In this document: positions 2,733 through 17,025 of the stretch, piece after piece | How positions within the stretch are numbered: position 1 is the first letter of the stretch | Layout of the letters: each line of letters opens with the position of its first letter | Assembly (NCBI GenBank): GCA_965220995.1 | Contig: CBDCRL010000001.1 | Span: forward strand, 66,623-130,622 | From: Acidimicrobiia bacterium | Lineage (GTDB): Bacteria; Actinomycetota; Acidimicrobiia; Spongiisociales; ZC4RG35 | Reading direction: 5' to 3' | Length of the DNA stretch: 64,000 nt | Position numbers and translations under genes: made by a program | Notes under the pieces: generated by a model | What the model saw: only the letters and a program-made list of their open reading frames with translations | What the model was told of the DNA's origin: nothing | The model's database searches: none

Positions 2733-3905
2733 CTACCGCCGAAAACCCGACTTGCGACGCCCTGAACAGAACGCCGGGTAAAGGTCGCACAGTTCCGCCA
2801 CGGTTCTTTCCAACACGGATTGGTGAAGCGGGGCCGGAAACAGTTTCAGGGTGCGATCGGCCGTCACCACCAGAGACAGCGCCTTCTGCGCGGCCTGCAG
2901 TTGATTGGGGCGGCTGACGGAATTGAACGGCTTTCTCTGGTTCCAAATGCGATCGTGGCGCTTCTGGCCCGACCGGACCCGACCCTGGGCGCCGGAACGC
3001 AACTTGCTCTCCGACTGGTTGTCCAACGGACCGGCCGCGCTCTCCAGCATCCGGGAAAACACGTTCCCTTCCTCCATTTGCCGGAAATGCTCCCGATCGG
3101 AGGCCCCGGACGCCAGGAGACGCAGCCGCAGGTCGGACTCCAGCGTTCCCAAAAGGATGTAGGGACGACCATCAGACGGTCTGGCATTGGCCAGATAATC
3201 GCCCAGGCGCCGTAACCCCGCGCTCCGGTTTCCGGCCACAATTTCGTCCAGGATGCGAAACACCGGTTGGTCGGGCCGGTTGCGAAATCGCTCCATGATC
3301 ATGCCGGCGGTTATCGGACGGTTTTCCCCCTGGAGTTGCTGCAGGGCTCTTTCGAGGGCCGCCCGGTCGGTTCCGAACCGTTGCACCAGAGCCGAGCGGG
3401 CTTCGTAGCCCATCCGCAGACCCTTCGATTTGATCTGCCCGTTCAGCCAACCGTGCACCTGGTTCTCCCATAGCGGACGAACCGATTGCACCTTGCCGGT
3501 CTTTTTGATCAGGGCGGGCAGGGGAGCCGGCAACCGACGCTGGGCAACCATCGCCACCGCCACCGCCGAGGGGTCGATGGTCGAGAGCAAGTCGGCCAAT
3601 GCCTTGGCTTCGGCCGCCAACAGAAAATTGGCGTCCACCAGCAGCACACCCTGCTTCTGCCCGAACAGGCTTGATGATTGAAGGAGCGGGACTATCCCAC
3701 TCAACTCGGACCGAAAAACCCCCTGCTGTTCGGGGGCGCCCAACGAAGCACCGCCCCCGCCCCGGGTGGGCGGCACGTCGACCCGGACGATCTGATCCAC
3801 CTCCACCCCCGTTTTGCGAAGATGACGGCGCCCCGCCGAAAGCGCCTCCTCCCGTTCTCCGGGGCCGCCCCGATCGGCAATTATCACCGCCAGCACCTCG
3901 CCCAT
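2733..3905 (-). CDS. holA: DNA polymerase III delta subunit (HolA-like)
   Basis: SLFG...GVLLVDA, WLNGQIKSKGLRM..EARSALVQRFGTDRAALERALQQL and VFRILDEI clamp-loader-like pattern; convergent with rpsT and downstream of comE genes, as in the conserved neighbourhood. Start approximate. Confidence 0.8.
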   Translation of the reverse strand: MGEVLAVIIADRGGPGEREEALSAGRRHLRKTGVEVDQIVRVDVPPTRGGGGASLGAPEQQGVFRSELSGIVPLLQSSSLFGQKQGVLLVDANFLLAAEAKALADLLSTIDPSAVAVAMVAQRRLPAPLPALIKKTGKVQSVRPLWENQVHGWLNGQIKSKGLRMGYEARSALVQRFGTDRAALERALQQLQGENRPITAGMIMERFRNRPDQPVFRILDEIVAGNRSAGLRRLGDYLANARPSDGRPYILLGTLESDLRLRLLASGASDREHFRQMEEGNVFSRMLESAAGPLDNQSESKLRSGAQGRVRSGQKRHDRIWNQRKPFNSVSRPNQLQAAQKALSLVVTADRTLKLFPAPLHQSVLERTVAELCDLYPAFCSGRRKSGFRR

Positions 3906-4012
3906 CGATCTCACGGTAGCAAGCCCGACCCTCGGACCACCGCCATGGTGGGCCCCGGCTCAACGGACCGGAGCGCCGATCAATCCCCGGCCGGGGCGTT
4001 CACCGGGCCGGA

Positions 4013-4393
4013 TCAGGGAGAACAGACCCTGAGCAGACTGTGTGCCTTCAGAGCGCCCCACCCCTCGAAACGACGGGCGGCGGTGACCTGGACCGGGTTC
4101 AGCCCCGTCCACAGTTCCGGCGCCCAGTCACCGGTGAGGGTTACCTGCAAATCCGACCCGGCGACACAGGCCGCCAGATGGCGATCACGGGCCAGTTCCG
4201 AAAGAGCGGCCCCACACTCGGCGCGGGGATCATCAGGTTCCTCCAGCTCACATGTCACCAGCCGCTCCGCTGTACGAACCGCTCGGGCTTCCAGCCTTAT
4301 GATCTCCTGCTCGAACCGGGCGTAATCGGACAGCAAGAGAGTGAAGAGCGTGGCCATGAACACCAACGCCAGGGCCAAGAGCGCCGTGCTCAT
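4013..4393 (-). CDS. TadE/TadG-like pseudopilin
   Basis: N-terminal hydrophobic helix, then EARAVRTAERL and a Cys-containing small domain. The ATG at 4393 overlaps the upstream TGA (ATGA). Confidence 0.55.
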   Translation of the reverse strand: MSTALLALALVFMATLFTLLLSDYARFEQEIIRLEARAVRTAERLVTCELEEPDDPRAECGAALSELARDRHLAACVAGSDLQVTLTGDWAPELWTGLNPVQVTAARRFEGWGALKAHSLLRVCSP

Positions 4394-4761
4394 CCGGTCG
4401 GCAACCAGGCCAGCCCGCGTGCGGACCGCGGATGAGCGGCGTCCGGATCGCAGATGACCTCCACCGCCACCTGTCCACTGCGCCACTGCCCGGATCCGGA
4501 GGCGGGGAGCATCTTCACCTTGGGTCCTTCACATACTCCGAACAGGGCTCTTCGGGCCGCGGCGCCGGCCCGTTCCTCAGCCTCCCGCTGCCGGGCCGCC
4601 GCCGCCCCCGGATGCAGATGGGAGGCGGCCACCGAAGCCGCCTCCTGCGCCGCGTAGCGAATCGACCCCTGTTTGGTCTCCTGCCCGGCCAGCAGGCTCA
4701 TCAGCAGCATCATGGTCACCACCAGATTGAGGGCCAAGAGTCCCGCCACCGCCTCGTCCAT
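4390..4761 (-). CDS. TadE-like pseudopilin
   Basis: TM helix followed by RYAAQEAASVAAS (TadE-type amphipathic helix) and GQVAVEVIC beta strand; located in a tad operon. Confidence 0.65.
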   Translation of the reverse strand: MDEAVAGLLALNLVVTMMLLMSLLAGQETKQGSIRYAAQEAASVAASHLHPGAAAARQREAEERAGAAARRALFGVCEGPKVKMLPASGSGQWRSGQVAVEVICDPDAAHPRSARGLAWLPTG

Positions 4762-4764
4762 GAA

Positions 4765-5208
4765 TCAGGTCACGTTCAAAGTACGGCAGGGTGGAGGGAG
4801 GGTGAGAACATTGTGCACCGTCTCGGCGCAACTCACGGCCCCGGCCGACAGGGCCGCCCACACTCCCTTCACCCTGGCCACCACTCTCACGACCACCGCG
4901 CACCCGTCATCCAGCCCTGTTTCCACATCCGCCGGCGCCACTCTCCCAAAGGACTGCACCCGGCTCACCGCCACCGAAGAAGCCAGTTCTTCCGCCTTCG
5001 GCCACCAGTCTTCATCCATCTCACACCTCCAAGGCCGGAGAGGATCGGCGCCCGCCTCGGTCAGGAACCTGGCCACCGAAGTGGCCGCCGCCCAGGCCGA
5101 AGCGGCCGCCGCGATCCGGGCGGCCTGGTGGTAGAACAGACTGACCATCATCCCGCTTGAGATCAGCAGCAGGCCCGCCACCTTGAGCCAGACGAGCGGG
5201 TACTCCAT
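4765..5208 (-). CDS. TadE-like pseudopilin
   Basis: MEYP + TM helix + AARIAAAASAWAAATSVA; C-terminal AVVVRVVARV..GAVSCA. Confidence 0.65.
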   Translation of the reverse strand: MEYPLVWLKVAGLLLISSGMMVSLFYHQAARIAAAASAWAAATSVARFLTEAGADPLRPWRCEMDEDWWPKAEELASSVAVSRVQSFGRVAPADVETGLDDGCAVVVRVVARVKGVWAALSAGAVSCAETVHNVLTLPPPCRTLNVT

Positions 5209-5230
5209 CAGACCCCCGGGAGTCCCCCGC

Positions 5231-5428
5231 CTAGCCGCATTTGTCGGCGGACCAGCTGTGACCGAGCGCTTCGCAGACCACCTGGTTGGTAATCAGAGCC
5301 GGATCCACGTCGCCGGGACTGCCGCTGGGGGCGCTCTGATTGAAGAGGTCCCATGCCACCGCCACCAGGGCCAGGACCATTGCCATCGCGGCGGCCAACA
5401 CTGCGATTCTTACTATCGGGCTTTCCAT
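5231..5428 (-). CDS. Putative Flp-like major pilin (65 aa)
   Basis: Small single-TM protein directly after tadC, with a strong AGGAG RBS and a C-terminal Cys pair; no canonical G|xxxxEY motif. Confidence 0.55.
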   Translation of the reverse strand: MESPIVRIAVLAAAMAMVLALVAVAWDLFNQSAPSGSPGDVDPALITNQVVCEALGHSWSADKCG

Positions 5429-5468
5429 TGCCTTCTCCTTTCTTCGGTTTTCCTTGCGAATGCCAAGA

Positions 5469-6191
5469 TCAATAGATGACAGTGAAAACCACGGCGGTCA
5501 TGACCAGACCGGTGGTAATCAGGGTGACGACCGTGCTCACCAAGGCAACCGACCGCGCCTTTTGCTCGATCCGCTCGTTCTTTCTTGCCGACAGAACCCG
5601 CACCGACCTGTCCAGGACCCGGTCCAGGAGCGCGATGGATGCTGCTCCGGACCGCTCGGCCTCGGCCAGGGTGGACACCAGTGGCTCCACGGCGGAACCC
5701 GCCAGGCGGTCGCTCACCGCGGCCAGGGGATCCCGGGAATGGGCCAGGGCCTGACTCACGGCGGTCCTGATCGGACCGAAGGCTGCGTCCGGCACTCTTT
5801 CTGCGGCCCCGAGCACCGCCGCCGCGATGGGCTGGCCGGCGCCCACGTAGAGTCGCACTCGGCGTAACCAGGAAAGCAGGGCCTGATCCCGGGCAAACCG
5901 AAACGACGCCGCCACCGCCCAACGGAAGAGGCGCCCGGTGAGCCGCGGCAGCCAAACCGCCACCGCCAAACCGATCACCACCGCCGCCCGGATCCCGAAC
6001 AGCGAGGCGGCCAGCGCAAAAATCCCGGCGGTCGCCGACAAGGTCACCACCCCGGAGACCAGGCCCAACCGAAGCGGCGTCCATCCCATGGCCGCCGTTT
6101 CCTCGGCCCTCGACCAGGGTTGGGCGTCCCGCAGCACCAATTCTGTGGCTCCCAGCGCCCCCACCAAAGCCGCGGCGATTGCCTCGGTCAT
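5469..6191 (-). CDS. TadC-like type II secretion system F family platform protein
   Basis: LRRVRLYVGAGQPIAAA, LAEAERSGA..LDRVLD and ERIEQKARS followed by a TM helix. Start set at ATG 6191 (ATGA overlap with tadB). Confidence 0.8.
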   Translation of the reverse strand: MTEAIAAALVGALGATELVLRDAQPWSRAEETAAMGWTPLRLGLVSGVVTLSATAGIFALAASLFGIRAAVVIGLAVAVWLPRLTGRLFRWAVAASFRFARDQALLSWLRRVRLYVGAGQPIAAAVLGAAERVPDAAFGPIRTAVSQALAHSRDPLAAVSDRLAGSAVEPLVSTLAEAERSGAASIALLDRVLDRSVRVLSARKNERIEQKARSVALVSTVVTLITTGLVMTAVVFTVIY

Positions 6192-6994
6192 CGAAGCATG
6201 CCCCGCACCGAGGACAACATTCGACCCACCAGCAGCGCGGTCAGCCCGGTTGCCACCGCCACCGCCACCTGGCCTTGTGGCGCCAGCAGCCATCGCCCGA
6301 CCTCGGACGACATCCATCCCAGTCCGGTCACGATGCCCACCGACAGGATCATCACCGCCACCAGAGTGGGCAGCTGTGAACCCACCCTGCGGAGCAGATA
6401 TCGAAGAAGCTCAGCCTCCTCCCCGGCCTCGGCTTCGAATATGTGAGCCACATCCATCCACCGTCCGCCCCCGGCCGAACTGATGTCGACAATGTCACCC
6501 AGCCAATCAGCCGACGGGATCCCCAGATTCCGTTTGAACCGAGCCGTGGCCGCTTCCACCCCGATGATCTCACAATCAGCGCCCATTTGAAGGGTGGCGG
6601 TCCTAACCCGTCCTGCAACCAGGGGGGCGGCGTTGCGGACCGCATCAATCACCGTGGTGGCGGCGGTGGCCTGATTGGCCAGTACGGTCGCCAGGGAGGA
6701 AACGGATTCGGCCAGGTCGGCGGCCCTTTTGACTTCTTGTCCGGTGATCCAGGCGCTCAAACACAGCCCGGTCACCAGTCCCAGCGAAGCGGCGATCCCC
6801 CACGCGCCCAGCCACATCCACGCCACCAGCGCCACCAGCACCGGCCAAAACCCCAGTCGGACCAGGCGGACTCCGGCCCGCCGCCCACCCTCCGCCCTGT
6901 CGAGGGCCGGGACCGCGCCGGTGCGGGGCTCCGCAAACAGCAACCCGAGCAGGGCAAGCCCTCCCACCGACACGATCAGAGGCGCCGGAGTCAC
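6188..6994 (-). CDS. TadB-like type II secretion system F family platform protein
   Basis: LAESVSSLATVL...SAGGGRW..V plus multiple TM helices. GTG at 6994 overlaps the tadA TGA (GTGA). Confidence 0.8.
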   Translation of the reverse strand: MTPAPLIVSVGGLALLGLLFAEPRTGAVPALDRAEGGRRAGVRLVRLGFWPVLVALVAWMWLGAWGIAASLGLVTGLCLSAWITGQEVKRAADLAESVSSLATVLANQATAATTVIDAVRNAAPLVAGRVRTATLQMGADCEIIGVEAATARFKRNLGIPSADWLGDIVDISSAGGGRWMDVAHIFEAEAGEEAELLRYLLRRVGSQLPTLVAVMILSVGIVTGLGWMSSEVGRWLLAPQGQVAVAVATGLTALLVGRMLSSVRGMLR

Positions 6995-8532
6995 AGTCTC
7001 ACTCCCGCCGCTTCGTAGAGCTCTCCCAGTCTTCCCTCGGGCGGTCCGCCCACCGGTGTGGCCCACCGGTCCCCCGGGCGGCAGGACCACCTCGGCCTCG
7101 TTTCAATCAACGAGGTGCTCTCATTGATCCCCACCAACTCCGTCACGTCACCCACCACCCGCTCCCCATGGGTATTGCGCCCCAGCCACACCAGCAGGTG
7201 CACCGCGGAGGCGATCTGCCGGCGGGCGTATTCGGCGTCGGCGCCTTCCACCACCGCGTAGGCGACCAGTTTCTCGATCACGGCTGTTCCGGGCCGGGAG
7301 TGGACCGTGACCAGGCACCCGTCCAGTCCCGACGACATGGCGTCCAGCAAGGCCAGGGTGCCTTCGCCCCGCACCTCCCCCACCACCAGCTTGGAGGTGT
7401 TGGCCCGCTTGGCGTCCCGGATGTGATCCGCCATGGAGTGCTTGCCGAAGCCGTCGTTGTTGGCGTCCCGCGTCAGCCGCTCATAGGTGTTGGGATGGAT
7501 GCCGTGCGCCGCCAACCGCAACTCCGGGGTGTCCTCGATGGTGTCGACCCGCTCCAACTCCGGCACGTCGGCCAAGAGCGCCTGGCACAGGGTGGTCTTG
7601 CCGCCTCCCATGGTGCTGGCGATCACCAGATTGGCCCGGACCCTTCCCGACACCGATTCCTGCAGCAGGGCCTTGAGTCGCTGGTCGGCCACACTCAACT
7701 CCTCCAACCCGGTTCGCCCTCGATTGAACCGAAGCACCATGTTGGGGGGAGAAGTGACATAGGCCTCGGCATGCAGCCGCCACCGACCCGATATCTGGAT
7801 GTCCAGGCGAGGATCCAACTGGTCGAACCGCTGGGGATGGTCACCCCCGTAGGCCGCCAGGAACTTGATGGCGTCGATCAGTTCCTCCTCGGTCCCGAAG
7901 GGCGAAAGTCGTTTCTCCCTGGTCCCGTCGGCAAACAGCGCATACATGGCATCCGCTCCCCGGATTTGAAACTCCTCCACCCCCTCCTCCTTCAGCAGAT
8001 CCCGCACCTGGTCCAGGGCCGTTTCCGCCGCCACCTCCCGCCGCAATGTGCCGTCCAGTCGGGCCAACCGATGGGGAGCGGCCGCCGCCTCCGCCGCCCA
8101 GCGCCCGACCTTGCCCAACGACTTCTGTCCCGCCTTGGTGACCATCGGCGACACCGTCCTGACCCATTCCGCCGCCAGGGACATCCCGATCGCCCGTCCG
8201 TCGGTCGCCTGATCGGACACCACCACCAGACCGACAGGCACCGTGGAAGCCTCACCCGTTTGAAGTCCCAATTTCTCTCGTATGGCGCCGGGCCGTCCCG
8301 TGGTCACCACCATCACTGCCGCGGCGGCGGAGGCCGCGGCCTGGAGAAACTGCTCCGGTTCATCGTCAAACATGGCCAACAGGGCCCCCGGGGCGCCCCA
8401 GACATCACCGTCCGACAAGGCGCCGGCCAGCACAACCCCTCGGAGCCTCCGATCCACGCTCCATTTGACCGCCGCCTTCATCCAGGCCGCCGGCTCACCC
8501 CGAAGTTCCCGTTCGAACACGATCAACAGCAC
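6991..8532 (-). CDS. CpaF/TadA (VirB11 family) pilus assembly ATPase with a long N-terminal extension
   Basis: Walker A STMGGGKTT, Asp box TIEDTPEL, Walker B LVVGEVRG and His box TVHS. Confidence 0.9.
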   Translation of the reverse strand: MLLIVFERELRGEPAAWMKAAVKWSVDRRLRGVVLAGALSDGDVWGAPGALLAMFDDEPEQFLQAAASAAAAVMVVTTGRPGAIREKLGLQTGEASTVPVGLVVVSDQATDGRAIGMSLAAEWVRTVSPMVTKAGQKSLGKVGRWAAEAAAAPHRLARLDGTLRREVAAETALDQVRDLLKEEGVEEFQIRGADAMYALFADGTREKRLSPFGTEEELIDAIKFLAAYGGDHPQRFDQLDPRLDIQISGRWRLHAEAYVTSPPNMVLRFNRGRTGLEELSVADQRLKALLQESVSGRVRANLVIASTMGGGKTTLCQALLADVPELERVDTIEDTPELRLAAHGIHPNTYERLTRDANNDGFGKHSMADHIRDAKRANTSKLVVGEVRGEGTLALLDAMSSGLDGCLVTVHSRPGTAVIEKLVAYAVVEGADAEYARRQIASAVHLLVWLGRNTHGERVVGDVTELVGINESTSLIETRPRWSCRPGDRWATPVGGPPEGRLGELYEAAGVRL

Positions 8533-8533
8533 T

Positions 8534-9376
8534 TCAACACGGTTCCCAACCGGAGGCGGGCGCCTCCCACATCACCAGGCCCTCGGCCGCCGAGAGCGAT
8601 TCCGCCGACCTTCGATTGACCACCACGGTGACCGCCTGCTCATCCACCGCCAACAACTCCATCACCCCCAGAGCGCAACCACCCAACTCCACCGCAAACA
8701 CCGCCCGATCCCCCGGCCTCGGACCCGGCGAAGGCCACAACGACCGATCCACCTCCAACCGCAACAAGGTCTCATCGGGGTCGACCAACTCCCCTTCCAG
8801 GAGGGTCGGACAGGGCTCCCATCCGGCATCCGGCGATTCCCAGACCACCAGTCCCGCCACTTCCGAAAGCATCTCGGTGGACTTCCGATCCACCATCACC
8901 GTCACCGCCTGCTCATCCACCGCCAACAACTCCATCACCCCCAGAGCGCAACCACCCAACTCCACCGCAAACACCGCCCGATCCCCCGGCCTCGGACCCG
9001 GCGAAGGCCACAACGACCGATCCACCTCCAACCGCAACGAGGTCATCTCGGATCCGGTTCCCCGGGCGGAGGGTTCACCGAGGACGGCGGACGGCACCAC
9101 CACTCCCTCGGGGAGGAACACCGAGGAAACCATCCCCGCCTCCAAATGATCGGGCAATCCGAACAGACCGCTCAAGGACTCGGGCACCAACACCTCATAG
9201 AACAAGCCGGTCGTTCCGGCCGGCCAAGGCTCGGCCGTGAGCAGCACCGCTACCTCATCCTCCACCGGCCGGCGACCCAGGAACCAGACGGACGCCACGC
9301 AAACCGTCACTATGGCCAGCGCTCCGATCAGCCTCAGTATCGAAAAGGACCGCGTCACCATCCTGTGACGGGGCAT
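8534..9376 (-). CDS. SAF/CpaB(RcpC)-like pilus assembly protein with an internally duplicated C-terminal domain
   Basis: TM helix, then VLLTAEPWPAG (SAF-like start), immediately upstream of cpaF; two copies of a ~76-aa unit. Confidence 0.55.
   Translation of the reverse strand: MPRHRMVTRSFSILRLIGALAIVTVCVASVWFLGRRPVEDEVAVLLTAEPWPAGTTGLFYEVLVPESLSGLFGLPDHLEAGMVSSVFLPEGVVVPSAVLGEPSARGTGSEMTSLRLEVDRSLWPSPGPRPGDRAVFAVELGGCALGVMELLAVDEQAVTVMVDRKSTEMLSEVAGLVVWESPDAGWEPCPTLLEGELVDPDETLLRLEVDRSLWPSPGPRPGDRAVFAVELGGCALGVMELLAVDEQAVTVVVNRRSAESLSAAEGLVMWEAPASGWEPC
8631..9038. repeat. Direct repeat: two identical 135-bp blocks (8631-8765 and 8904-9038), period 273 bp
   Basis: Base-by-base comparison shows identity from accgcctgct to ccgcaac in both copies; the flanks are diverged. 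Confidence 0.9.
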
Positions 9377-10701
9377 CAGCAGTCCTCCCCGGTGCAGACC
9401 CTGGCGGTGGAGGAGGTGTAGTCAACCAGACGCTGCAGGCGGGAAACCCCACTTTGGACCAGCAAAGTCCGCTCCTGGGAGGTGTCACCGTCGGCGGTGC
9501 GAAATGTCGCCCACAGCTTCCACTCCCACACCGAGGGATGCGAGACGAAGAAGACGCAATCGCGGCGCCCTGGCTGTCCCACCTTGCAGACCACCTCCGT
9601 CGGGTTGGTTACACCGGAAGAGCGGTGACGGGCCTGGACCGCCCTCCGCCGGGACTCCCCCATCCGTTCCCACTGCTCCACAAGGTCGGGGGCCGCGTTC
9701 CGCAACTGTGTCCGATCGGCCCATCGCCACACCAGGAGTTCTCGCCACCGGGACCGCACGGACTGCAAATCCCACGAGCATTCGACAATGGTCGGGGTGT
9801 CTCCCACCGCCCCTTGGCTCGCCACGGTTACTCCCTCGGGGACCAATGGCCAGATTCTCGGTTCCGCCGAGGCCGACTCCAGCAGTTTGTTGGAAGTCAC
9901 GAACAACCGGGCCGACCCGGTCCCCACCGGGATCTCGTCGCCTCCCGCCACGCCGCTCGCCAGGCCTTCGGGTCTGCCCAACACGGTGTCCCAACCGAAA
10001 CGGTCTCTCACCAGTTCCAGGTCCGCGTCCGAAAGTGGGCGGCAGTGGGTCGGATCCGGAGGGCGCGTCGTGGTAGTGGTTGAGGGACGCGGCCGGGTGG
10101 TCGGGGGCGGAACCGGACGGGTTGGGCGGGTAGGCCGAGGCCGGGTGGCCCGCGTGGTGGGAGTCGGCCGAGGCCGGGTGGTCGGGGGCCGGGTGGCCCG
10201 GGTGGTGCTCGGCAGACTCACGGCCCGCGTGGTGGTTGTCACCGGTCGGGTGGTGGTGGGTGATCGGGTGGTGGTCGGCGGTCGGGTGGTGGTCGTGGTG
10301 GTCGGGGGTCGGGTGGTGGTCGTGGTGGTGGGATGTCGGTGCGTAACCGTATCCCGGCAGGCCGTCCCGGCCCAGTAGCCCGAACACTCCACACGTGTGT
10401 AGCTGTTGACCACGCTGCACCCCGGACCCGGGCCCGGACAATTCTCCATCCGGATCTTGGTCACCCATTGCAGGCATCCATAGCCCGTCGGATACAAATC
10501 CCCGAAGCGTTTGCAAAGGGAATACTTCACGGGTCGGGCAAAGGCATAGACGATCTTCATCGTGACCGTCCCCGCCTTGGTTCGTACATGGGCATCCGTC
10601 TTCGGGGGATTGGGTATCAGCATCAACGCCAGGGAGATGAGCAACACCGCCGCCGCCGTTCCGGTGAGAGTGCGGTTGAAGGGGGTAGGTGATTTTCCCA
10701 T
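9376..10701 (-). CDS. Hypothetical exported protein: signal/TM segment, Cys-rich domain, Thr/Pro/Arg-rich linker, C-terminal beta-rich domain
   Basis: Start set at ATG 10701 (TGATG overlap). Six Cys in the N-terminal domain; TTTTTTRPP repeats. Confidence 0.7.
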   Translation of the reverse strand: MGKSPTPFNRTLTGTAAAVLLISLALMLIPNPPKTDAHVRTKAGTVTMKIVYAFARPVKYSLCKRFGDLYPTGYGCLQWVTKIRMENCPGPGPGCSVVNSYTRVECSGYWAGTACRDTVTHRHPTTTTTTRPPTTTTTTRPPTTTRSPTTTRPVTTTTRAVSLPSTTRATRPPTTRPRPTPTTRATRPRPTRPTRPVPPPTTRPRPSTTTTTRPPDPTHCRPLSDADLELVRDRFGWDTVLGRPEGLASGVAGGDEIPVGTGSARLFVTSNKLLESASAEPRIWPLVPEGVTVASQGAVGDTPTIVECSWDLQSVRSRWRELLVWRWADRTQLRNAAPDLVEQWERMGESRRRAVQARHRSSGVTNPTEVVCKVGQPGRRDCVFFVSHPSVWEWKLWATFRTADGDTSQERTLLVQSGVSRLQRLVDYTSSTARVCTGEDC

Positions 10702-12434
10702 CAGGACGGGGGGATTCCCAGGTATCGCCTCTGCTCGGGCGTGGCGTTGAGCCAAAAGTCGAGATGATTGGGGGGAAAGAGATCAAAGTCCCATATGGAG
10801 TCCGACCACACCGGATTCGGGTCATCGGGGCAACTCAAGGCGTAATGGACCTTGAGTTCCATCGAGAAGCACCACATGGGATAGGACATGCGCCAGGTTC
10901 CGTCGGCGGTGCGCACCACCATCATGGTGTCCCAGAATCCCTCATGCGGAGGGGGAGGACCGGTGGGAAGTTCCCCACTGAGCGCCCATTCGGGAACGTC
11001 CAGACCCGCATCGACTTGCTCCTGAATCTTCGCCCTGGCCCGTTCCTGCATGTCGGAATCCGCCAATCCCGGACGGGCATAGAGGCGGAACTCGGCGGAG
11101 ATCATCGAGGCGCCGGGGAAGAGGCCGGCCCACCGAACGTTCCGCACCTCCGCCAGGTAGTGGCCGGGGTTGGCCGGATCGAACCAGTAGGCCGAGAAAC
11201 TGTCCTGGTGGTCCTCCCTGACTTGCCGGATGGTTTCCGCCAGGACATGGCCATCCCGCACTGCGGCCTGGGTCTGTTCGGGGGTGGCCGCGGCATGGGC
11301 GAACTGGAAGGCGGTGCGGACCGCGGACAGGGTGCAGGAATCTTCCACCGGCGCCTCCGGTGACCACAGTTGCTCCACCGGCGGGCAGTCGCGGCCCAGC
11401 AGGTGGGCGGTTTCGGGAAACCGAGGCTCGGCATAGGGGATGGTGAGCGGAAGAGGTGGGCTGAAGGGAAGCTCGATGTCGGCCAGGAACCCGTCCTCGG
11501 TGACCAGCAGTTCCCTTTGTTCTCCCAGGGGCCAGGTGGCCACCACTTTCACCGTGTCCGGGTGGTCGTGCCAGGACAGGTCGTAGCGCACCGGATAGTA
11601 GATCATGGGAGAAGACCAGAACACATCCAGGGTGCGTTGCCAACGCCGCCACATCTCGGTTTGCGTGTCCTCCTCCCCCATGTAGTAGAACCGGTAGAAC
11701 CGATGAGGCGTGGTGCCTCGGTCCTGCTTCTCCTCGTACCAAAGATCCGCTCCGGTACTGCTCGGGTCGATGGCCCTGAAGGCCTCCTCCTGCAGACCCG
11801 GTCGCCACCAGATGATTGACCCGATCACCGACGGATCCGGTTGGGAACGCTCCGGGGCTGCCACCTCCTCGGGAGGGGATGGCGGCTCGGGGGCGGGCGG
11901 CTTTGGGCCGGAGTCGGAGGTAACCGGGATCTCCATGGCCGTGACATTCGGAGGAGCGATCTCCTGTGGGGCCGGCGCCACGGTAGTGGTGGAGGTCGTC
12001 GTATCAGCAGGACGGTTAAGGGTCGAGGCAATCGGAGGAGTGCGGTCCCCCACCGGCCGGGTGGCAACCGTCGAGTCAGCGGTGACGGTCGAAGCAATGG
12101 GGAGGGCGTTCCCGGTGGCGGCGGTGGTGGCCGTGGTATCAGCAGGACGGTTGAGGGTCGAGGCAATCGGAGGAGTGCGGTCGCCCACCGGCCGGGTGGT
12201 AACCGTCGAGTCGGTGGTGACGGTGGTCTCGGGCGCCGCATTGGCCGCGGTCGTCGGCGTTTGCGGGGTGGCAGGCTCGGTAACCGCGGTCGTCACCGGG
12301 GCGGTCACGATGCTCATCGGACCATCCTGGGCTATCGGAGTGGCGCGGTTGTCGATGGATTCCTCGCCACAGGACGATCCCGCCAGCAACGCGATCGCAA
12401 TCGGGACCACCAATCGTGGCAGATAACTATTCAC
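10701..12434 (-). CDS. Hypothetical large putative lipoprotein with a Thr/Pro-rich repeat stalk and Trp/Tyr-rich C-terminal domains
   Basis: GAGGAGG RBS; signal peptide ending LLAGSSC (imperfect lipobox); internal 45-aa-period repeat. Confidence 0.7.
   Translation of the reverse strand: MNSYLPRLVVPIAIALLAGSSCGEESIDNRATPIAQDGPMSIVTAPVTTAVTEPATPQTPTTAANAAPETTVTTDSTVTTRPVGDRTPPIASTLNRPADTTATTAATGNALPIASTVTADSTVATRPVGDRTPPIASTLNRPADTTTSTTTVAPAPQEIAPPNVTAMEIPVTSDSGPKPPAPEPPSPPEEVAAPERSQPDPSVIGSIIWWRPGLQEEAFRAIDPSSTGADLWYEEKQDRGTTPHRFYRFYYMGEEDTQTEMWRRWQRTLDVFWSSPMIYYPVRYDLSWHDHPDTVKVVATWPLGEQRELLVTEDGFLADIELPFSPPLPLTIPYAEPRFPETAHLLGRDCPPVEQLWSPEAPVEDSCTLSAVRTAFQFAHAAATPEQTQAAVRDGHVLAETIRQVREDHQDSFSAYWFDPANPGHYLAEVRNVRWAGLFPGASMISAEFRLYARPGLADSDMQERARAKIQEQVDAGLDVPEWALSGELPTGPPPPHEGFWDTMMVVRTADGTWRMSYPMWCFSMELKVHYALSCPDDPNPVWSDSIWDFDLFPPNHLDFWLNATPEQRRYLGIPPS
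12001..12215. repeat. In-frame repeat with a 135-bp period encoding DSTV(T/A)TRPVGDRTPPIASTLNRPADTT twice
   Basis: gtatcagcaggacggtt occurs at 12001 and 12136. Confidence 0.85.
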
Positions 12435-12486
12435 AGCTTCCCTCCTCTCAGAGACGCTTGATGCGGTGCCTATTTCCCCCCGGCGC

Positions 12487-12514
12487 CCGATTCGGGAAAA
12501 GCTTCCGGAATCGG
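12487..12514. promoter_or_regulatory. 12-bp inverted repeat (1 mismatch, 4-nt loop) between comEC and the tad operon; terminator or operator
   Basis: ccgattcgggaa-aagc-ttccggaatcgg. Confidence 0.4.
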
Positions 12515-12596
12515 AACATCGGTGTCTTCGGAACTCGAACGGTAAGGGCGATCCGATCAGGAATCGGCGATGAGCCGCCGGTGAAACTTCCCGTTC

Positions 12597-12789
12597 TTAC
12601 CCGAGTTTTGCCATGGCGGACGGACCCGACAGTTGTTCGGCCCCGGACGGACGCACCACCACATCCCCGTGCCGATCGGTGCGCAGCACCCGGGCGCCTC
12701 CCTCGGCCAGCACCTCTTCCACCCACCGGGCGGGATGCCCATAGTCATTGGGACCCACACTGATCACCGCCAATCGACCGGCGTTTTGC
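12597..12789 (-). pseudogene. comEC: Detached 3' fragment of comEC (end of the metallo-beta-lactamase domain)
   Basis: Encodes NAGRLAVISVGPNDYGHP...VLRTDRHGDV. Removing the IS and one 8-bp duplication restores a 2250-bp in-frame comEC (749 aa). Confidence 0.92.
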
Positions 12790-14199
12790 GGTACTTCGGA
12801 AATTAGTGGGGAGTGATGGTTGCGAGGAGTTTCCAGTTGGGTTTTCCGGCGTAGAGGAGTGCTCGGATTCGGTAGTTGTCGAAGTTCCGAAAACCGAATG
12901 CTGCTCGTTTGATCCGTTTGATCAGGTTGTTCAGTCCCTCGGTGGGTCCGTTCGTCACTTTCGAGTGATGCCAGTTGGTGATCTGGGTGGCCCACCTGCT
13001 GATGGTCCGTCCCAGGCGGTTCACCTCTGGAGGGAGTGACCGGTCCTGCAGATCCGAGGCCAGCTGCTGGGTGAACTCCCAAGCCAGTTGTGGGTCTCCG
13101 ATCTGGTAGATGTCCCGGACGCTTTCCTTAGCCGACCAGGCATCCCGTACCTCTCCGTAGGGGTCACCAGCCCGTAACAAGCCCCGGAGGCGGGATTCGC
13201 CGTGGCTGTCGATCCTTTCATGGGCCATTATCAAAAGCCGTCGTATGCGATACAGCGGGTCGCGTTTGCGTCCCCGGTGTCCCAGTGTCTCGTTCTGCAC
13301 CCGGCATCGGACCTGATCGACGGTGCGGTTAGCCAACCTGATGACATGAAACGGGTCAGCCACCTGAAAGGCGTGGGGCAACACCTGGTCGTAGGCCACC
13401 TGATAAGGGCCGGACAAGTCCAACACCGCCCACTTGATCGCCTCACGCCACCCCGCTGGTTGGTTCCGGAACCAACCAGCCGCGCTTTTTACGGTTCTAC
13501 CAGGCACTATGTCCAACAACTGACACCCACCGACATCCACCACCGACGTGCACCACTGCTTGGTACGCCACCGGCCCTTCTTCCAGAACAGGGTCTCGTC
13601 CACTCCCACCGCCTCCACCCGCCCGAACCGGGCGGTGTCGGCTTCCAACAGCGACTTTCCCCATCGGACGGTCTCCTGGTTCACCGTATGCCAATCACAC
13701 CCCAACTCGGCGGCCACCTCCGACACAGTACGCCCCAAACGGCCCACCTGATAAGTGACCCACCGCCCCGCCCGAGACGTCAACAAAGCCCGCTCCGGCG
13801 CCACCGACTCGTCCTGTTCCACAAACGACCCCACGCCGCATTCCCCATCAGGACACATCCAACGACGTTTCCGCCACCGCAACCGCACCGGCCGCCCAAA
13901 CGCCGGCAAATCCACCAACCCCACCGTCCGATAGCCCTTCGACCACACCCCACCACCGCACTCATCGCATACTGGACGAAAAGCGCCCGATCTGATCGTC
14001 ACCCTCAACCGGTCACCCGAAAGCTCCTCCACCCCTACCAAGTCCACGTCACCCAACCCGACCAACACCTCACACATACGCCTACCATCAGTCTCCACAG
14101 GGTCCTCCTTTCAGATGCGACTGCTTTCAGCACCCGATTATGGAGGACCCTCCCCCACAATCAATGGATTCCCCACTCCCCACTAATTTCCGAAGATCC
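12790..14199 (-). mobile_element. ISL3-family insertion sequence, copy 1 (1410 bp), inserted in comEC
   Basis: Terminal IRs GGTACTTCGGAAATTAGTGGGGAGTG / GGATCTTCGGAAATTAGTGGGGAGTG; 8-bp target duplication CGTTTTGC / CGTTTTCC with 1 mismatch. Confidence 0.95.
12803..14098 (-). CDS. ISL3 family transposase
   Basis: Zn-finger CxxC..CxxxxC, GVDET, LDLSGPY, ADPFHVIRLA and TNGPTEGLNNLIKRIKR..FGFRNF. Confidence 0.96.
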   Translation of the reverse strand: METDGRRMCEVLVGLGDVDLVGVEELSGDRLRVTIRSGAFRPVCDECGGGVWSKGYRTVGLVDLPAFGRPVRLRWRKRRWMCPDGECGVGSFVEQDESVAPERALLTSRAGRWVTYQVGRLGRTVSEVAAELGCDWHTVNQETVRWGKSLLEADTARFGRVEAVGVDETLFWKKGRWRTKQWCTSVVDVGGCQLLDIVPGRTVKSAAGWFRNQPAGWREAIKWAVLDLSGPYQVAYDQVLPHAFQVADPFHVIRLANRTVDQVRCRVQNETLGHRGRKRDPLYRIRRLLIMAHERIDSHGESRLRGLLRAGDPYGEVRDAWSAKESVRDIYQIGDPQLAWEFTQQLASDLQDRSLPPEVNRLGRTISRWATQITNWHHSKVTNGPTEGLNNLIKRIKRAAFGFRNFDNYRIRALLYAGKPNWKLLATITPH

Positions 14200-16264
14200 C
14201 GTTTTCCTTCAGCCACCCCCGATCAGAGGTGGCGGCGCCTTGATGAGGCACCTTGAGGACATCGGGCCGAATCGGTCCCTGTTCGGCCTGCGCCACCTCC
14301 TCGATGTCGGCCGCCATGAGGAAGGACGTTCCGGCCAGGTCCACCGCCAGTACGATCGACTGGTCGTTCATGTGCTCATACCGACGCAGCGGGCCCAGCA
14401 CCTCGACCTGCAGGTCCCCCGCACTGAACCGCTGCCCGGGGAGGGGTCGGTGGACCGCGATTTCCTGGGCGGCGATCCGCTCCCGCAACACCCGATGGGC
14501 CGGGGTCCGGTGGGGGTGGGAGGCATCCCACACCGCCCCCACCGGAATCTCGCCCACCACCGCCTCCAAGCCTCGCACATGATCGGCGTGGGGATGGGTG
14601 ATCACCAGCAAATCCAACTCCCGGACCCCATAGGCCCGGAGTTTGTCCGCCAAGACCAGCGGATCGGGACCTCCATCGATCAACATGGTGAAACCGGTCC
14701 CCATCACCAGAATGGAGTCCCCCTGGCCCACGTCCAGGAACACCACCGCCGGGGGATCGGCGCCCCCGTATCCGGCCAGGGAGGGAAAAACAGGAAGCAT
14801 GGGAACGGCCACCAGCAAAGCCACCCCGGTGGCCAGAACAGGACCTCGGATCACCGGCCATCGCCAAGCCGCCGCTCCCACGCACGACACCACAACCACA
14901 CCCATCCAATTCAATTGAGGAAACAGAGAGGCGAATCTCGCCACCGCCAGCACTCCCTCCGCCGCCCAGGCAGACAACCACACCAGCGGGCGCCAACCCG
15001 CCAAGGCCCCCACACCTCCCAGGCCGGTGGAAACCGCCACCAGGGGTCCGGCCGCCAGATTGGCCAGGGGAGAGAGCAGGGGAAGCGTTCCGAAAAAGCT
15101 CAACACCAGGGGGGCCACCGCCGCCTGCGCGGCCACCGTCGCCCCCAGGGTCTGCCAAACCCACCGGGGCCGACGATCGGCGGCCAACCGCATACCCACC
15201 ATGACCCCCAGCGTGGCAGCCACCGACAGGGCGAACCCCAGGCTGACCGCCAACTCGGCGGACACCAACAGGGCAAGCACCACGGTGGCGCCGATCGCCG
15301 TCCAGGCGCCCAGCGGGTAACCCACCGCCCGGGCGCCCATCACCAGGGAAGCCAACACCCCGGCGCGCAGGACCGAAGGCTCCCAACGGGTGGCCACCAC
15401 AAACATCCCCAGGCCGATCAGTCCCACCCCGGCGCGCAGCCCGGGCCTGCGGGCCAGGGGCCACATCAGCATCCAAAGAGCCCCCAGAAAGAGGGCTACG
15501 TTACCTCCCGAGACCGCCACATAGTGGCTCAAACCCGAGCGCCGCAGGTTGGCCAGGTCGATAGCCGAAAGCCCCGAGGTGTCACCCACCAGAAACCCGG
15601 CAACCAACGCCAACCCGTCGGGCGGGCCGGTCAACAGGTTGCCGATCACTCGCCTTCTCATCTGGTTGCCGGCCGCCACCAGCCAACCCTGAGCGGGTGA
15701 CAATCGAGCCAACCCACCACTTCGCATCCGTGCTGCGTACGCGGCCGTGCCCCGGCGACCGGGTCTCTTGCTGATAAGACCGGACGTCTCGAACACCTCT
15801 CCCGCCGCCACCTGCCCGGCGTCGGAGGGCTCCACCATCACCACCGGACCCGACCACTCTTTCCAGCCATCCTCTTCCGCCACCCGGTAGGCCAGCGGCT
15901 TGGCCAACAACCAAACCTGATCCGGAGTTCCGACCGGGTCGGTGCGAGCCACCGCCCGGATGGTCACCGGCCCCTCCACCACGGGCGCCGAAAGCATGGC
16001 CTGCTCCCGGTGAAACGCTCCCCACCCCGCCCACGCCCCGGCGGCCAGCGCCACGGCCAGGACCGCCACCCTCGCCGACCGCTTCACGAGCAATATTGCC
16101 CCGCCGCCGGCCAACGCCGCCCACAGCCCGAAGGGGTGTCTTCCCAGCAAGGCCCCCGACCAAACCAGCGAGGCCGCCACCAGCATCCGGGCCTCGCCCC
16201 CCGTGGGCAGCGCCACCCGCCACCTCCCCCTCCCTACCGACCGATCCCCTCTCTCCTCAGTCAA
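14200..16264 (-). pseudogene. comEC: ComEC/Rec2 competence protein, IS-truncated
   Basis: HYVAVSGGNV, PSVLRA, SLGFALSVAAT, FLDVGQGDS, THPHADH and KVPHQG; the frame runs into the IS and stops at 14183. Confidence 0.93.
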
Positions 16265-16860
16265 GGCAGGACAACGTAGTCCCGGATCCCCGACAGCTTC
16301 TTTTCGCCGATCCCGGGGACATCCAGTAGATCTTCCACCGTCTGAAACGGCCCGTTGGCAACCCGGTGATCCACGATTCTCGCCGCCAAAACCGGACCCA
16401 CACCGGGGACCTCTTCCAACTCCTGGGCACTGGCCCGATTCAGATTTGGCCGGCCCGGGGAATTCGCTCCCGCAGTTGCCCAGACCTCCTCTTGCCCCGT
16501 TTCCGTGGCAGGACCGGGCACCACCACCCGGTCGCCGTCGAACACCGGCGCGGCCAGATTGATCTCTCCCAGTCGGGCATCCGACAGGGCGCCTCCCGCC
16601 GCGCCGATGGCGTCACCCACCCGAGCGGACGGGCGGACCCTGACCAACCCCGGATGCAGGACCCTTCCCGCCACGTGCACCACCAACCACTCGTCGGGGG
16701 ACGCCTCCACCGCACCCGCCGGGGCGGATGGCAGGACCACCCGTGTCTCACCCTGGGCAATCGGCTCCGGGGGGCGGGGGCGCCACAGCCCGAAGAACAG
16801 TCCGGCTCCCAGGGCGGTGACCACCATCACCGCCACCAAGCCCCAATGTGTTTTCTCCAT
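16261..16860 (-). CDS. comEA: ComEA DNA-uptake receptor (SLBB + helix-hairpin-helix)
   Basis: VVHVAGRVLHPGL, INLAAPVFDG, NLNRASAQELEEVPGVGPVLA and DLLDVPGIGEKK. Confidence 0.95.
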   Translation of the reverse strand: MEKTHWGLVAVMVVTALGAGLFFGLWRPRPPEPIAQGETRVVLPSAPAGAVEASPDEWLVVHVAGRVLHPGLVRVRPSARVGDAIGAAGGALSDARLGEINLAAPVFDGDRVVVPGPATETGQEEVWATAGANSPGRPNLNRASAQELEEVPGVGPVLAARIVDHRVANGPFQTVEDLLDVPGIGEKKLSGIRDYVVLP

Positions 16861-16884
16861 ACTTGACTATGGATCGCCCCCTAC

Positions 16885-16902
16885 CCCAAAGTCCACTTTG
16901 GG
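16885..16902. promoter_or_regulatory. Perfect 8-bp dyad with a 2-bp spacer just upstream of comEA; candidate operator
   Basis: cccaaagt-cc-actttggg, 25-42 bp from the comEA ATG. Confidence 0.35.
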
Positions 16903-17025
16903 ACATCGTTTTTTCTGAAAAAGAAGGCAGAGAATTTTCACCATTGCCGGGACCGCGCCGGGCATGGCGTTCTTTATAGTTACAGGTCAATCAACCCGGG
17001 GGACCGGCCAAAGGAGGACCGCCTA

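Follow-up and report, generated by a model that had tools for sequence, protein, structure and literature searches.

Candidate leaderless pilin-like subunits in a divergent Tad-type locus of Acidimicrobiia

It is a cleavable class III signal peptide that defines the subunits of type IV filaments, and polymerisation is held to require its removal (PMC10191384). A stretch of 64,000 nucleotides from the genome of a sponge-associated member of the Acidimicrobiia (C2:66623-130622, hereafter the window; genome of 2.7 Mb, 63% GC) raises the question of whether a Tad-type machine could be built from subunits that have no such leader at all. It holds an operon of Tad-type layout whose last four genes, here named P1 to P4, encode short bitopic proteins, and a sequence-only reading of this DNA had proposed that the four products may be born-mature pilins. 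In a purely computational analysis, we find that their leaderless state is real, is conserved in four protein families and is not an artefact of start calling. Our preferred reading, suggested by the N-terminal sequences and predicted folds, is that P1-P4 serve a clade-specific Tad-type machine as pilin-like subunits that have no leader and are not processed; we hold it to be about evenly poised between right and wrong.

Gene starts of P1-P4

The four genes lie next to one another on the minus strand:

5231..5428, minus strand: P1, 65 amino acids, bitopic, beginning MESPIVR, in the position of the major pilin (Flp); the sequence opens MESPIVRIAVLAAAMAMVLALVAVAW
4765..5208, minus strand: P2, 147 amino acids, beginning MEYPLVWLK, pseudopilin-like, without leader, four conserved cysteines; the sequence opens MEYPLVWLKVAGLLLISSGMMVSLFY
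4390..4761, minus strand: P3, 123 amino acids, beginning MDEAVAG, pseudopilin-like, without leader, invariant N-terminal M-D-E; the sequence opens MDEAVAGLLALNLVVTMMLLMSLLAG
4013..4393, minus strand: P4, 126 amino acids, beginning MSTALLA, pseudopilin-like, without leader, invariant D23, four conserved cysteines; the sequence opens MSTALLALALVFMATLFTLLL

All four products enter the hydrophobic helix straight from Met1, as the sequence-only reading had stated. In P1, MESPIVR is followed by about 19 hydrophobic residues, W26, an N-[AT]-P motif and a conserved cysteine pair, with M1, A16, P34 and C52 invariant. Two further claims of that reading also hold. For P1-P3 there is no ATG, GTG or TTG between the preceding in-frame stop and the start, hence no upstream in-frame start, and a G↓xxxxE site (the arrow marks cleavage) is absent from P1-P4. 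A regular-expression scan of both strands from 3801 to 17000 for an open reading frame (ORF) with G-xxxx-E and a hydrophobic segment likewise brought up no hidden prepilin.

To follow the starts through evolution, 80 related loci were fetched with the ATPase of the operon as query, P1-P4 were located there by tblastn, and the in-frame upstream sequence was compared across loci (n=65 for P1, 49 for P2, 19 for P3 and 51 for P4). The start codon, ATG in most, is kept in every sequence: 65/65 for P1 (60 ATG, 5 GTG), 49/49 for P2, 19/19 for P3 and 51/51 for P4. Upstream, codon entropy is 1.9-3.7 bits at all 12 positions compared; it is no higher than 1.0 bit at +1 and for the most part stays at 0-2 bits as far as +12. 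A Shine-Dalgarno sequence, AAAGGAG, stands 8 nt upstream of P1, with a similar sequence in 64 of the 65 P1 loci. Because the starts are conserved, the upstream codons are not, and no hidden G-xxxx-E ORF exists, the leaderless state does not stem from mis-called starts.

The opposite view holds that the starts are mis-called and that a leader comes from a non-canonical start upstream, or from the preceding gene through a frameshift or readthrough. It draws on the general experience that start calls for small ORFs are often wrong in GC-rich genomes, and on a longer, GTG-started P4 ORF that extends to 4486. The diversity of the upstream codons speaks against it, as do the frequent stops among them (in-frame and at most 12 codons upstream in 35 of 49 P2 sequences). 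The strong Shine-Dalgarno sequence of P1 lies at the right distance, the tadC stop precedes P1 by 40 nt in a different frame, the P4 ATG (4393) shares an ATGA with the stop of P3 and is kept in 51 species, and no G-xxxx-E motif is found in any frame. We thus regard this explanation as largely refuted and its truth as very improbable.

Relatives outside these loci show the same picture. Word-indexed searches over 5.8 billion proteins gave 176 P1-like clusters, 64-72 amino acids long among the listed matches except one of 82, and 124 P2-like clusters, mostly of 138 amino acids among the listed matches; both kinds are named 'hypothetical protein' and have no Pfam domain, and independent gene callers yield equal lengths for them. 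When 1.84 billion representative proteins were searched exhaustively with a profile, only 35 relatives of P2 came up, nearly all aligning from residue 1; the few with an N-terminal extension hold an internal V/L-D-T-A... that looks like the true start. One P2 orthologue (L012:10452-10640) is cut by a stop to 63 amino acids; it may be a pseudogene, or the sequence may contain an error. P1 opens (5407-5422) with codons that are rare and A/T-rich (ATA, GTA, AGA) despite the high GC content of the genome, which fits a genuine start with little mRNA structure.

Comparison with canonical pilins

The same genome offers its own standard of comparison, since it has two further TadA-family ATPases, each within a canonical Tad locus:

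C5:972001-992000 (L087): canonical Tad locus with a DUF4244/Class_IIIsignal Flp, a TadE and an Rv3654c-type TadE-like protein
C5:380001-400000 (L088): canonical Tad locus with CpaB (SAF/RcpC), a CpaE-like protein, TadA, TadB and TadC, an Flp and three pseudopilins

In L087 the leaders read ...DQRG↓QGTVEYILVV for Flp, ...DERG↓SLAVEAVLVLP for TadE and ...GQRG↓TITVL for the Rv3654c-type protein; in L088 Flp has ...GQGG↓LSTAEL and the three pseudopilins have G↓ sites. In all seven canonical pilins the leader is basic and ends in Gly, and in five of them it has Arg at -2. Three of the seven match DUF4244/Class_IIIsignal, TadE and TIGR03816 above cut-off, and one more matches below cut-off; the control scores are 34.8 bits for DUF4244 (Flp), 39.3 for TadE, 34.4 for Tad and 66.9 for TIGR03816. 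The models therefore do detect the ordinary Tad pilins of this genome.

P1-P4 behave differently. When the ten proteins of the operon were scanned with Pfam and NCBIfam models (reporting to E ≤ 1), P1 did not match Flp_Fap (PF04964), DUF4244 (PF14029) or Class_IIIsignal, P2-P4 did not match PF07811, PF13400, NF041390 or TIGR03816, and none of the four had any other family match. P1 lacks the G↓XXXXEY sequence of Flp, and none of the four has the leader ending in Gly or Ala that the canonical controls possess. The labels 'Flp-like' and 'TadE-like' of the sequence-only reading must hence be read as purely positional.

What the four families do have in common is an N-terminal pattern, M-[DE or ST]-[ST/E]-[PA/S]-[VILF]-x-x-[LIM], or in summary M-[DE]-[ST]-[PA]-hydrophobic-x-x-L. 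Pilins of one machine usually share a common N-terminal consensus, and at the level of sequence the motif of P1-P4 recalls such a consensus. Residue 2 is Asp or Glu in 48 of 65 P1 sequences and Gln in the other 17, acidic in 45 of 49 P2 and in all 19 P3 sequences, where an invariant Glu3 follows, and Ser, Thr, His or Tyr, not acidic, in P4. No Glu stands at the equivalent of mature position 5; residue 6 is there G/A/S, A/V/T or V/L, and the acid of P1-P3 is at residue 2. The earlier proposal that the acid at position 2 replaces Glu+5 thus agrees with its presence in most P1 and P2 and all P3 sequences, but not with the 17 P1 sequences with Gln, with P4, or with the way in which P1 residues 2 and 7 (window 5407-5425) covary. 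These two are Asp and Lys in 40 sequences, Glu with Lys or Arg in 8, and Gln and Gln in 17 (n=65), and a lone charge never occurs. Such covariation would fit a buried ion pair better than a simple substitute for Glu5. All 17 Gln/Gln sequences begin MQSAIVQ and probably form one clade, so that the covariation may be a single evolutionary event.

Methionine aminopeptidase (MetAP) keeps Met1 before Asp, Glu or Gln and removes it before Ser or Thr. P4 has Ser or Thr at position 2 in 34 of 51 sequences, and trimming of these would leave a Ser or Thr N-terminus as in mature canonical 'G↓T/S...' pseudopilins. Cysteine counts are 2 in every P1, 4 in 48 of 49 P2, 2 or 4 in P3, and 4 in 38 of 51 P4 sequences (5 or 7 in the other 13); these mostly even, conserved numbers fit ectodomains that would lie outside the membrane.

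Profile-profile alignment (hhalign) against the canonical pseudopilins of the source genome and related genomes places Met1 opposite Gly(-1). P2 aligns with the Rv3654c-type TadE-like protein at 76% probability (E 2.2e-5); P3 aligns weakly with canonical TadE (16%), with A4-V5 on A(+3)-V(+4), and P4 weakly with the Rv3654c-type protein (11%), with D23 on D30. The three alignments, individually weak, agree on the register Met1 = Gly(-1). AlphaFold2 models built with family alignments predict for P2 (pLDDT 88.8) a helix at 3-52, a second at 69-85 and three strands, and for P4 (pLDDT 88.1) a helix at 2-48, a second at 59-69 and three strands. Both predictions are pilin-like in topology only, with a 47-50-residue α1 that starts at residue 2-3 and precedes a small β-sheet. 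Foldseek matches of the two models to pantothenate synthetase and crystallin domains were set aside as noise. With type IV pilins (IPR012902; Pelicic 2023, PMC10191384), P1-P4 would thus share the predicted long hydrophobic α1, the small β-sheet, cysteines capable of forming disulfides and a common N-terminal motif, but not the defining leader ending in Gly or Ala, nor Glu5.

Operon, machine and peptidase

P1-P4 close a tightly packed minus-strand operon of ten genes that runs from 12434 to 4013 in the order X577, X459, X280, TadA-type ATPase, TadB-position gene, TadC-like gene, P1, P2, P3, P4. Its first six genes are:

10701..12434, minus strand: X577, first gene of the operon, lipoprotein-like exported protein, seen in 62/80 loci, without family match
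9376..10755, minus strand: X459, Pro/Thr-rich exported protein, in 78/80 loci, without family match
8534..9376, minus strand: X280, membrane-anchored protein with internal duplication in the CpaB position, in 80/80 loci
6991..8532, minus strand: TadA-type secretion ATPase, T2SSE 51.8 bits (above the cut-off of 24.9), Walker motifs intact
6188..7090, minus strand: polytopic membrane protein in the TadB position, no Pfam match in the window or in five orthologues, in 80/80 loci
5469..6317, minus strand: TadC-like platform protein, T2SSF 21.7 bits in the window, under the cut-off of 25.2

The ATPase belongs to the TadA/CpaF family. Its best NCBIfam match is TIGR03819 at 137 bits, under the equivalog cut-off of 373, and it is 30% identical to the canonical TadA of the source genome, with Walker A GGGKTT and VVGEVRG present. 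Residues 1-150 form an N-terminal extension of about 150 amino acids without family match, which could stand in for TadZ; among the operon proteins no ParA/CbiA (TadZ/CpaE) match was obtained with Pfam or NCBIfam, and CpaE is present in the canonical locus L088. X280 has a weak SAF match (18.5 bits) in one orthologue. In two of the three TadC orthologues scored, T2SSF rises above the cut-off, to 29.1 and 27.9 bits. The TadB-position gene probably starts at the GTG at 6994 and the TadC-like gene at the ATG at 6191, the longest-ORF starts at 7090 and 6317 being probably too long; the resulting overlaps, GTGA between the ATPase and tadB and ATGA between tadB and tadC, couple these genes as ATGA couples P3 and P4.

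An ATPase, two platform-position genes, a 65-amino-acid gene and three genes for 120-150 amino acids mirror the canonical Tad loci of the source genome. The closest known counterparts are the actinobacterial Tad (type IVc) loci of the Rv3654c-Rv3660c or 'helicase-secretion neighbourhood' type, which comprise TadA (TIGR03819), TadB, TadC, a DUF4244 Flp, TadE (NF041390) and an Rv3654c-type TadE-like protein (TIGR03816), with the A24 peptidase encoded elsewhere. Our operon resembles these in gene order and sizes, ATPase family, T2SSF platform, the one small and three mid-size bitopic proteins after tadC, and the location of the peptidase outside the operon. It differs in that P1-P4 have no leader, Gly(-1), Glu(+5) or model match, in the low identity and the N-terminal extension of the ATPase, in having no CpaE/TadZ gene, and in its three extra exported proteins upstream.

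The sequence-only reading had also pointed to the lack of a prepilin peptidase in the cluster. Indeed, no operon protein matches Peptidase_A24, but the genome encodes exactly one such enzyme elsewhere (C5:799733-800059, 49.8 bits), directly after aroE-mltG-ruvX-alaS. In these lineages the peptidase sits outside the canonical operons too, beside aroE, and an A24 gene is present in 50/50 genomes that carry the atypical locus (44 above cut-off). Its absence from the P1-P4 operon is thus uninformative. All 50 carriers also have, besides the atypical one, at least one canonical TadA, and the canonical pilins are substrates that explain why the peptidase is retained. In Poriferisodalis-type genomes an A24 gene and the operon share a strand, with the former about 9 kb upstream; as this is the housekeeping gene adjacent to aroE, we treat the linkage as coincidence.

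With the peptidase at hand in every carrier, P1-P3 might be cut after a very short acidic leader, by A24 or another protease, following position 6 in P2 and P3 or Ser3 in P1, with P4 trimmed by MetAP. The residues at these places are suggestive: position 6 is Gly or Ala in 19/19 P3 and Gly, Ser or Ala in 45/49 P2 sequences, Ser3 is found in 63/65 P1 sequences, and P4 with Ser or Thr at position 2 is an established type of MetAP substrate. However, the putative leaders are net acidic and have no basic residue, whereas all seven canonical substrates have basic leaders ending in Gly. Furthermore, position 6 is Val in the P2 of the window itself, Gly or Ala at a suitable site is missing from P1 and P4, and if P2 were cut after position 12, the remaining hydrophobic segment would be too short. 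Altogether, we consider such processing quite improbable.

A second possibility is that P1-P4 are pilin-like but serve as membrane-anchored accessory, stator or alignment parts, while the filament is made from a pilin of a canonical locus, or while there is none and the machine acts in secretion or uptake. The superfamily of type IV filaments has a precedent in ArlF and ArlG (FlaF/FlaG), which resemble archaellins, have no class III signal peptide and are not processed (PMC8978795). The missing class III signal, pilin model match and Foldseek match of P1-P4 would agree with this role, as would the fact that each carrier genome has a normal Flp in one or more canonical Tad loci. Yet P1-P4 occupy exactly the flp- and tadE-like positions in an operon that holds no other pilin candidate, P1 is as small as mature Flp, the predicted α1 has typical pilin length, and one N-terminal motif is common to the four families, as in the pilins of a single system. 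Moreover, ArlF and ArlG share their operon with normally processed archaellins, whereas here all candidate subunits are leaderless. The former are archaeal and the latter stand in a bacterial Tad-type context; no sequence relation is expected. We consider an accessory role unlikely, though less so than short-leader cleavage.

A possible mechanism and its distribution

If P1-P4 are leaderless pilin-like subunits, they would supply a Tad-type (type IVc-like) machine, the third in this genome and a highly divergent one, with one short protein resembling a major pilin and three resembling pseudopilins. The class III leader would have been lost from all four, with the initiator Met at the position of the canonical Gly(-1). 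The subunits would insert as N-in/C-out signal-anchor proteins with cysteine-bonded ectodomains outside. The TadA-like ATPase and the platform proteins would then extract the subunits and stack them with no prior cleavage by A24; the shared motif and the charge-balanced pair at P1 residues 2 and 7 may take over the docking and charge-neutralising role of Glu5. The analysis establishes the conserved leaderless N-termini, the layout of the operon, the predicted folds and the canonical controls within one genome; that filaments form, that the subunits are left unprocessed and that the acidic residue plays this part is what we infer. More speculatively, and at somewhat less than an even chance, this Tad-type lineage has given up processing by a prepilin peptidase entirely, with Met in place of the -1 Gly, the 2/7 pair in place of the salt bridge from Glu5 to the N-terminus, and MetAP trimming at most P4.

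The idea of born-mature pilins is supported in part, by the conserved leaderless N-termini, the pilin-like models of P2 and P4 and the Met1 = Gly(-1) register, but not by membership in the Flp or TadE families. Several other results, besides the lack of Flp, DUF4244, TadE and Tad matches, weigh against it. According to a review (PMC10191384), pilin leaders invariably end in Gly or Ala and pilins are defined by that signal, so that a leaderless filament subunit has a low prior. Against 16 canonical Flp sequences P1 reached an hhalign probability of 4.6%, and its kinship to Flp is purely positional; P2, P3 and P4 are not detectably related to one another by hhalign, and neither the P2 nor the P4 model had a significant pilin match in the PDB by Foldseek. 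The TadB-position protein shows no T2SSF signal in six sequences (the window and five orthologues). As A24 and canonical Tad genes accompany the locus in 50/50 carriers, distribution cannot show independence from the peptidase. A search for RNA runs gave only DNA or unknown-type runs. A literature search for 'leaderless pilin' had no match, and a comparative paper on sponge Actinobacteriota makes no mention of pili.

The locus is found mainly in sponge- and coral-associated Acidimicrobiia, and the closest relatives of the source genome are lineages of this kind (Ca. Poriferisodalis, Poriferisocius, Aldehydirespirator, Spongiisociaceae and Sva0996). The P2 family occurs in only 9 of 151 genomes of the window's order in the Genome Taxonomy Database (GTDB); of the 20 genomes searched in its GTDB family, only the window genome has the locus and the 19 others do not, the remaining carriers belonging to two other families. 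From this scattered distribution, the locus may have spread horizontally or been lost in patches.

In the window, comEA-comEC flanks the operon on one side and holA on the other. The comEC gene (12597-16264) is split by an ISL3-type transposase ORF (12803-14098), with comEA (16261-16860) and leuS upstream. Neither comEA nor comEC was matched in the 80 related loci, the closest relative L003 included; holA, rpsT and lepA adjoin the operon again only in L003, and four loci read in detail have differing flanking ORFs. We did not use the comEA-comEC/holA neighbourhood as a clue to DNA uptake. In Poriferisodalis-type genomes (L089, G186:C1:3478001-3493000) the operon stands between nusB and pyrR, in an alaS-ruvX-mltG-aroE-A24-aroB-efp-nusB block, so that its housekeeping neighbourhood differs across lineages.

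In summary, the four leaderless proteins of this operon, if they are filament subunits, would break the rule that type IV filament subunits carry a cleavable leader. They would show what leader and peptidase are needed for, be it targeting and topology or the licensing of assembly, and in what way other residues can take the place of Glu5. Neither PilFind nor annotation by HMMs sees such subunits, all members found being called 'hypothetical protein', and similar systems may therefore be under-counted. The enrichment in sponge- and coral-associated bacteria, together with the canonical Tad loci alongside, suggests a specialised role in symbiosis, for example in adhesion or uptake.

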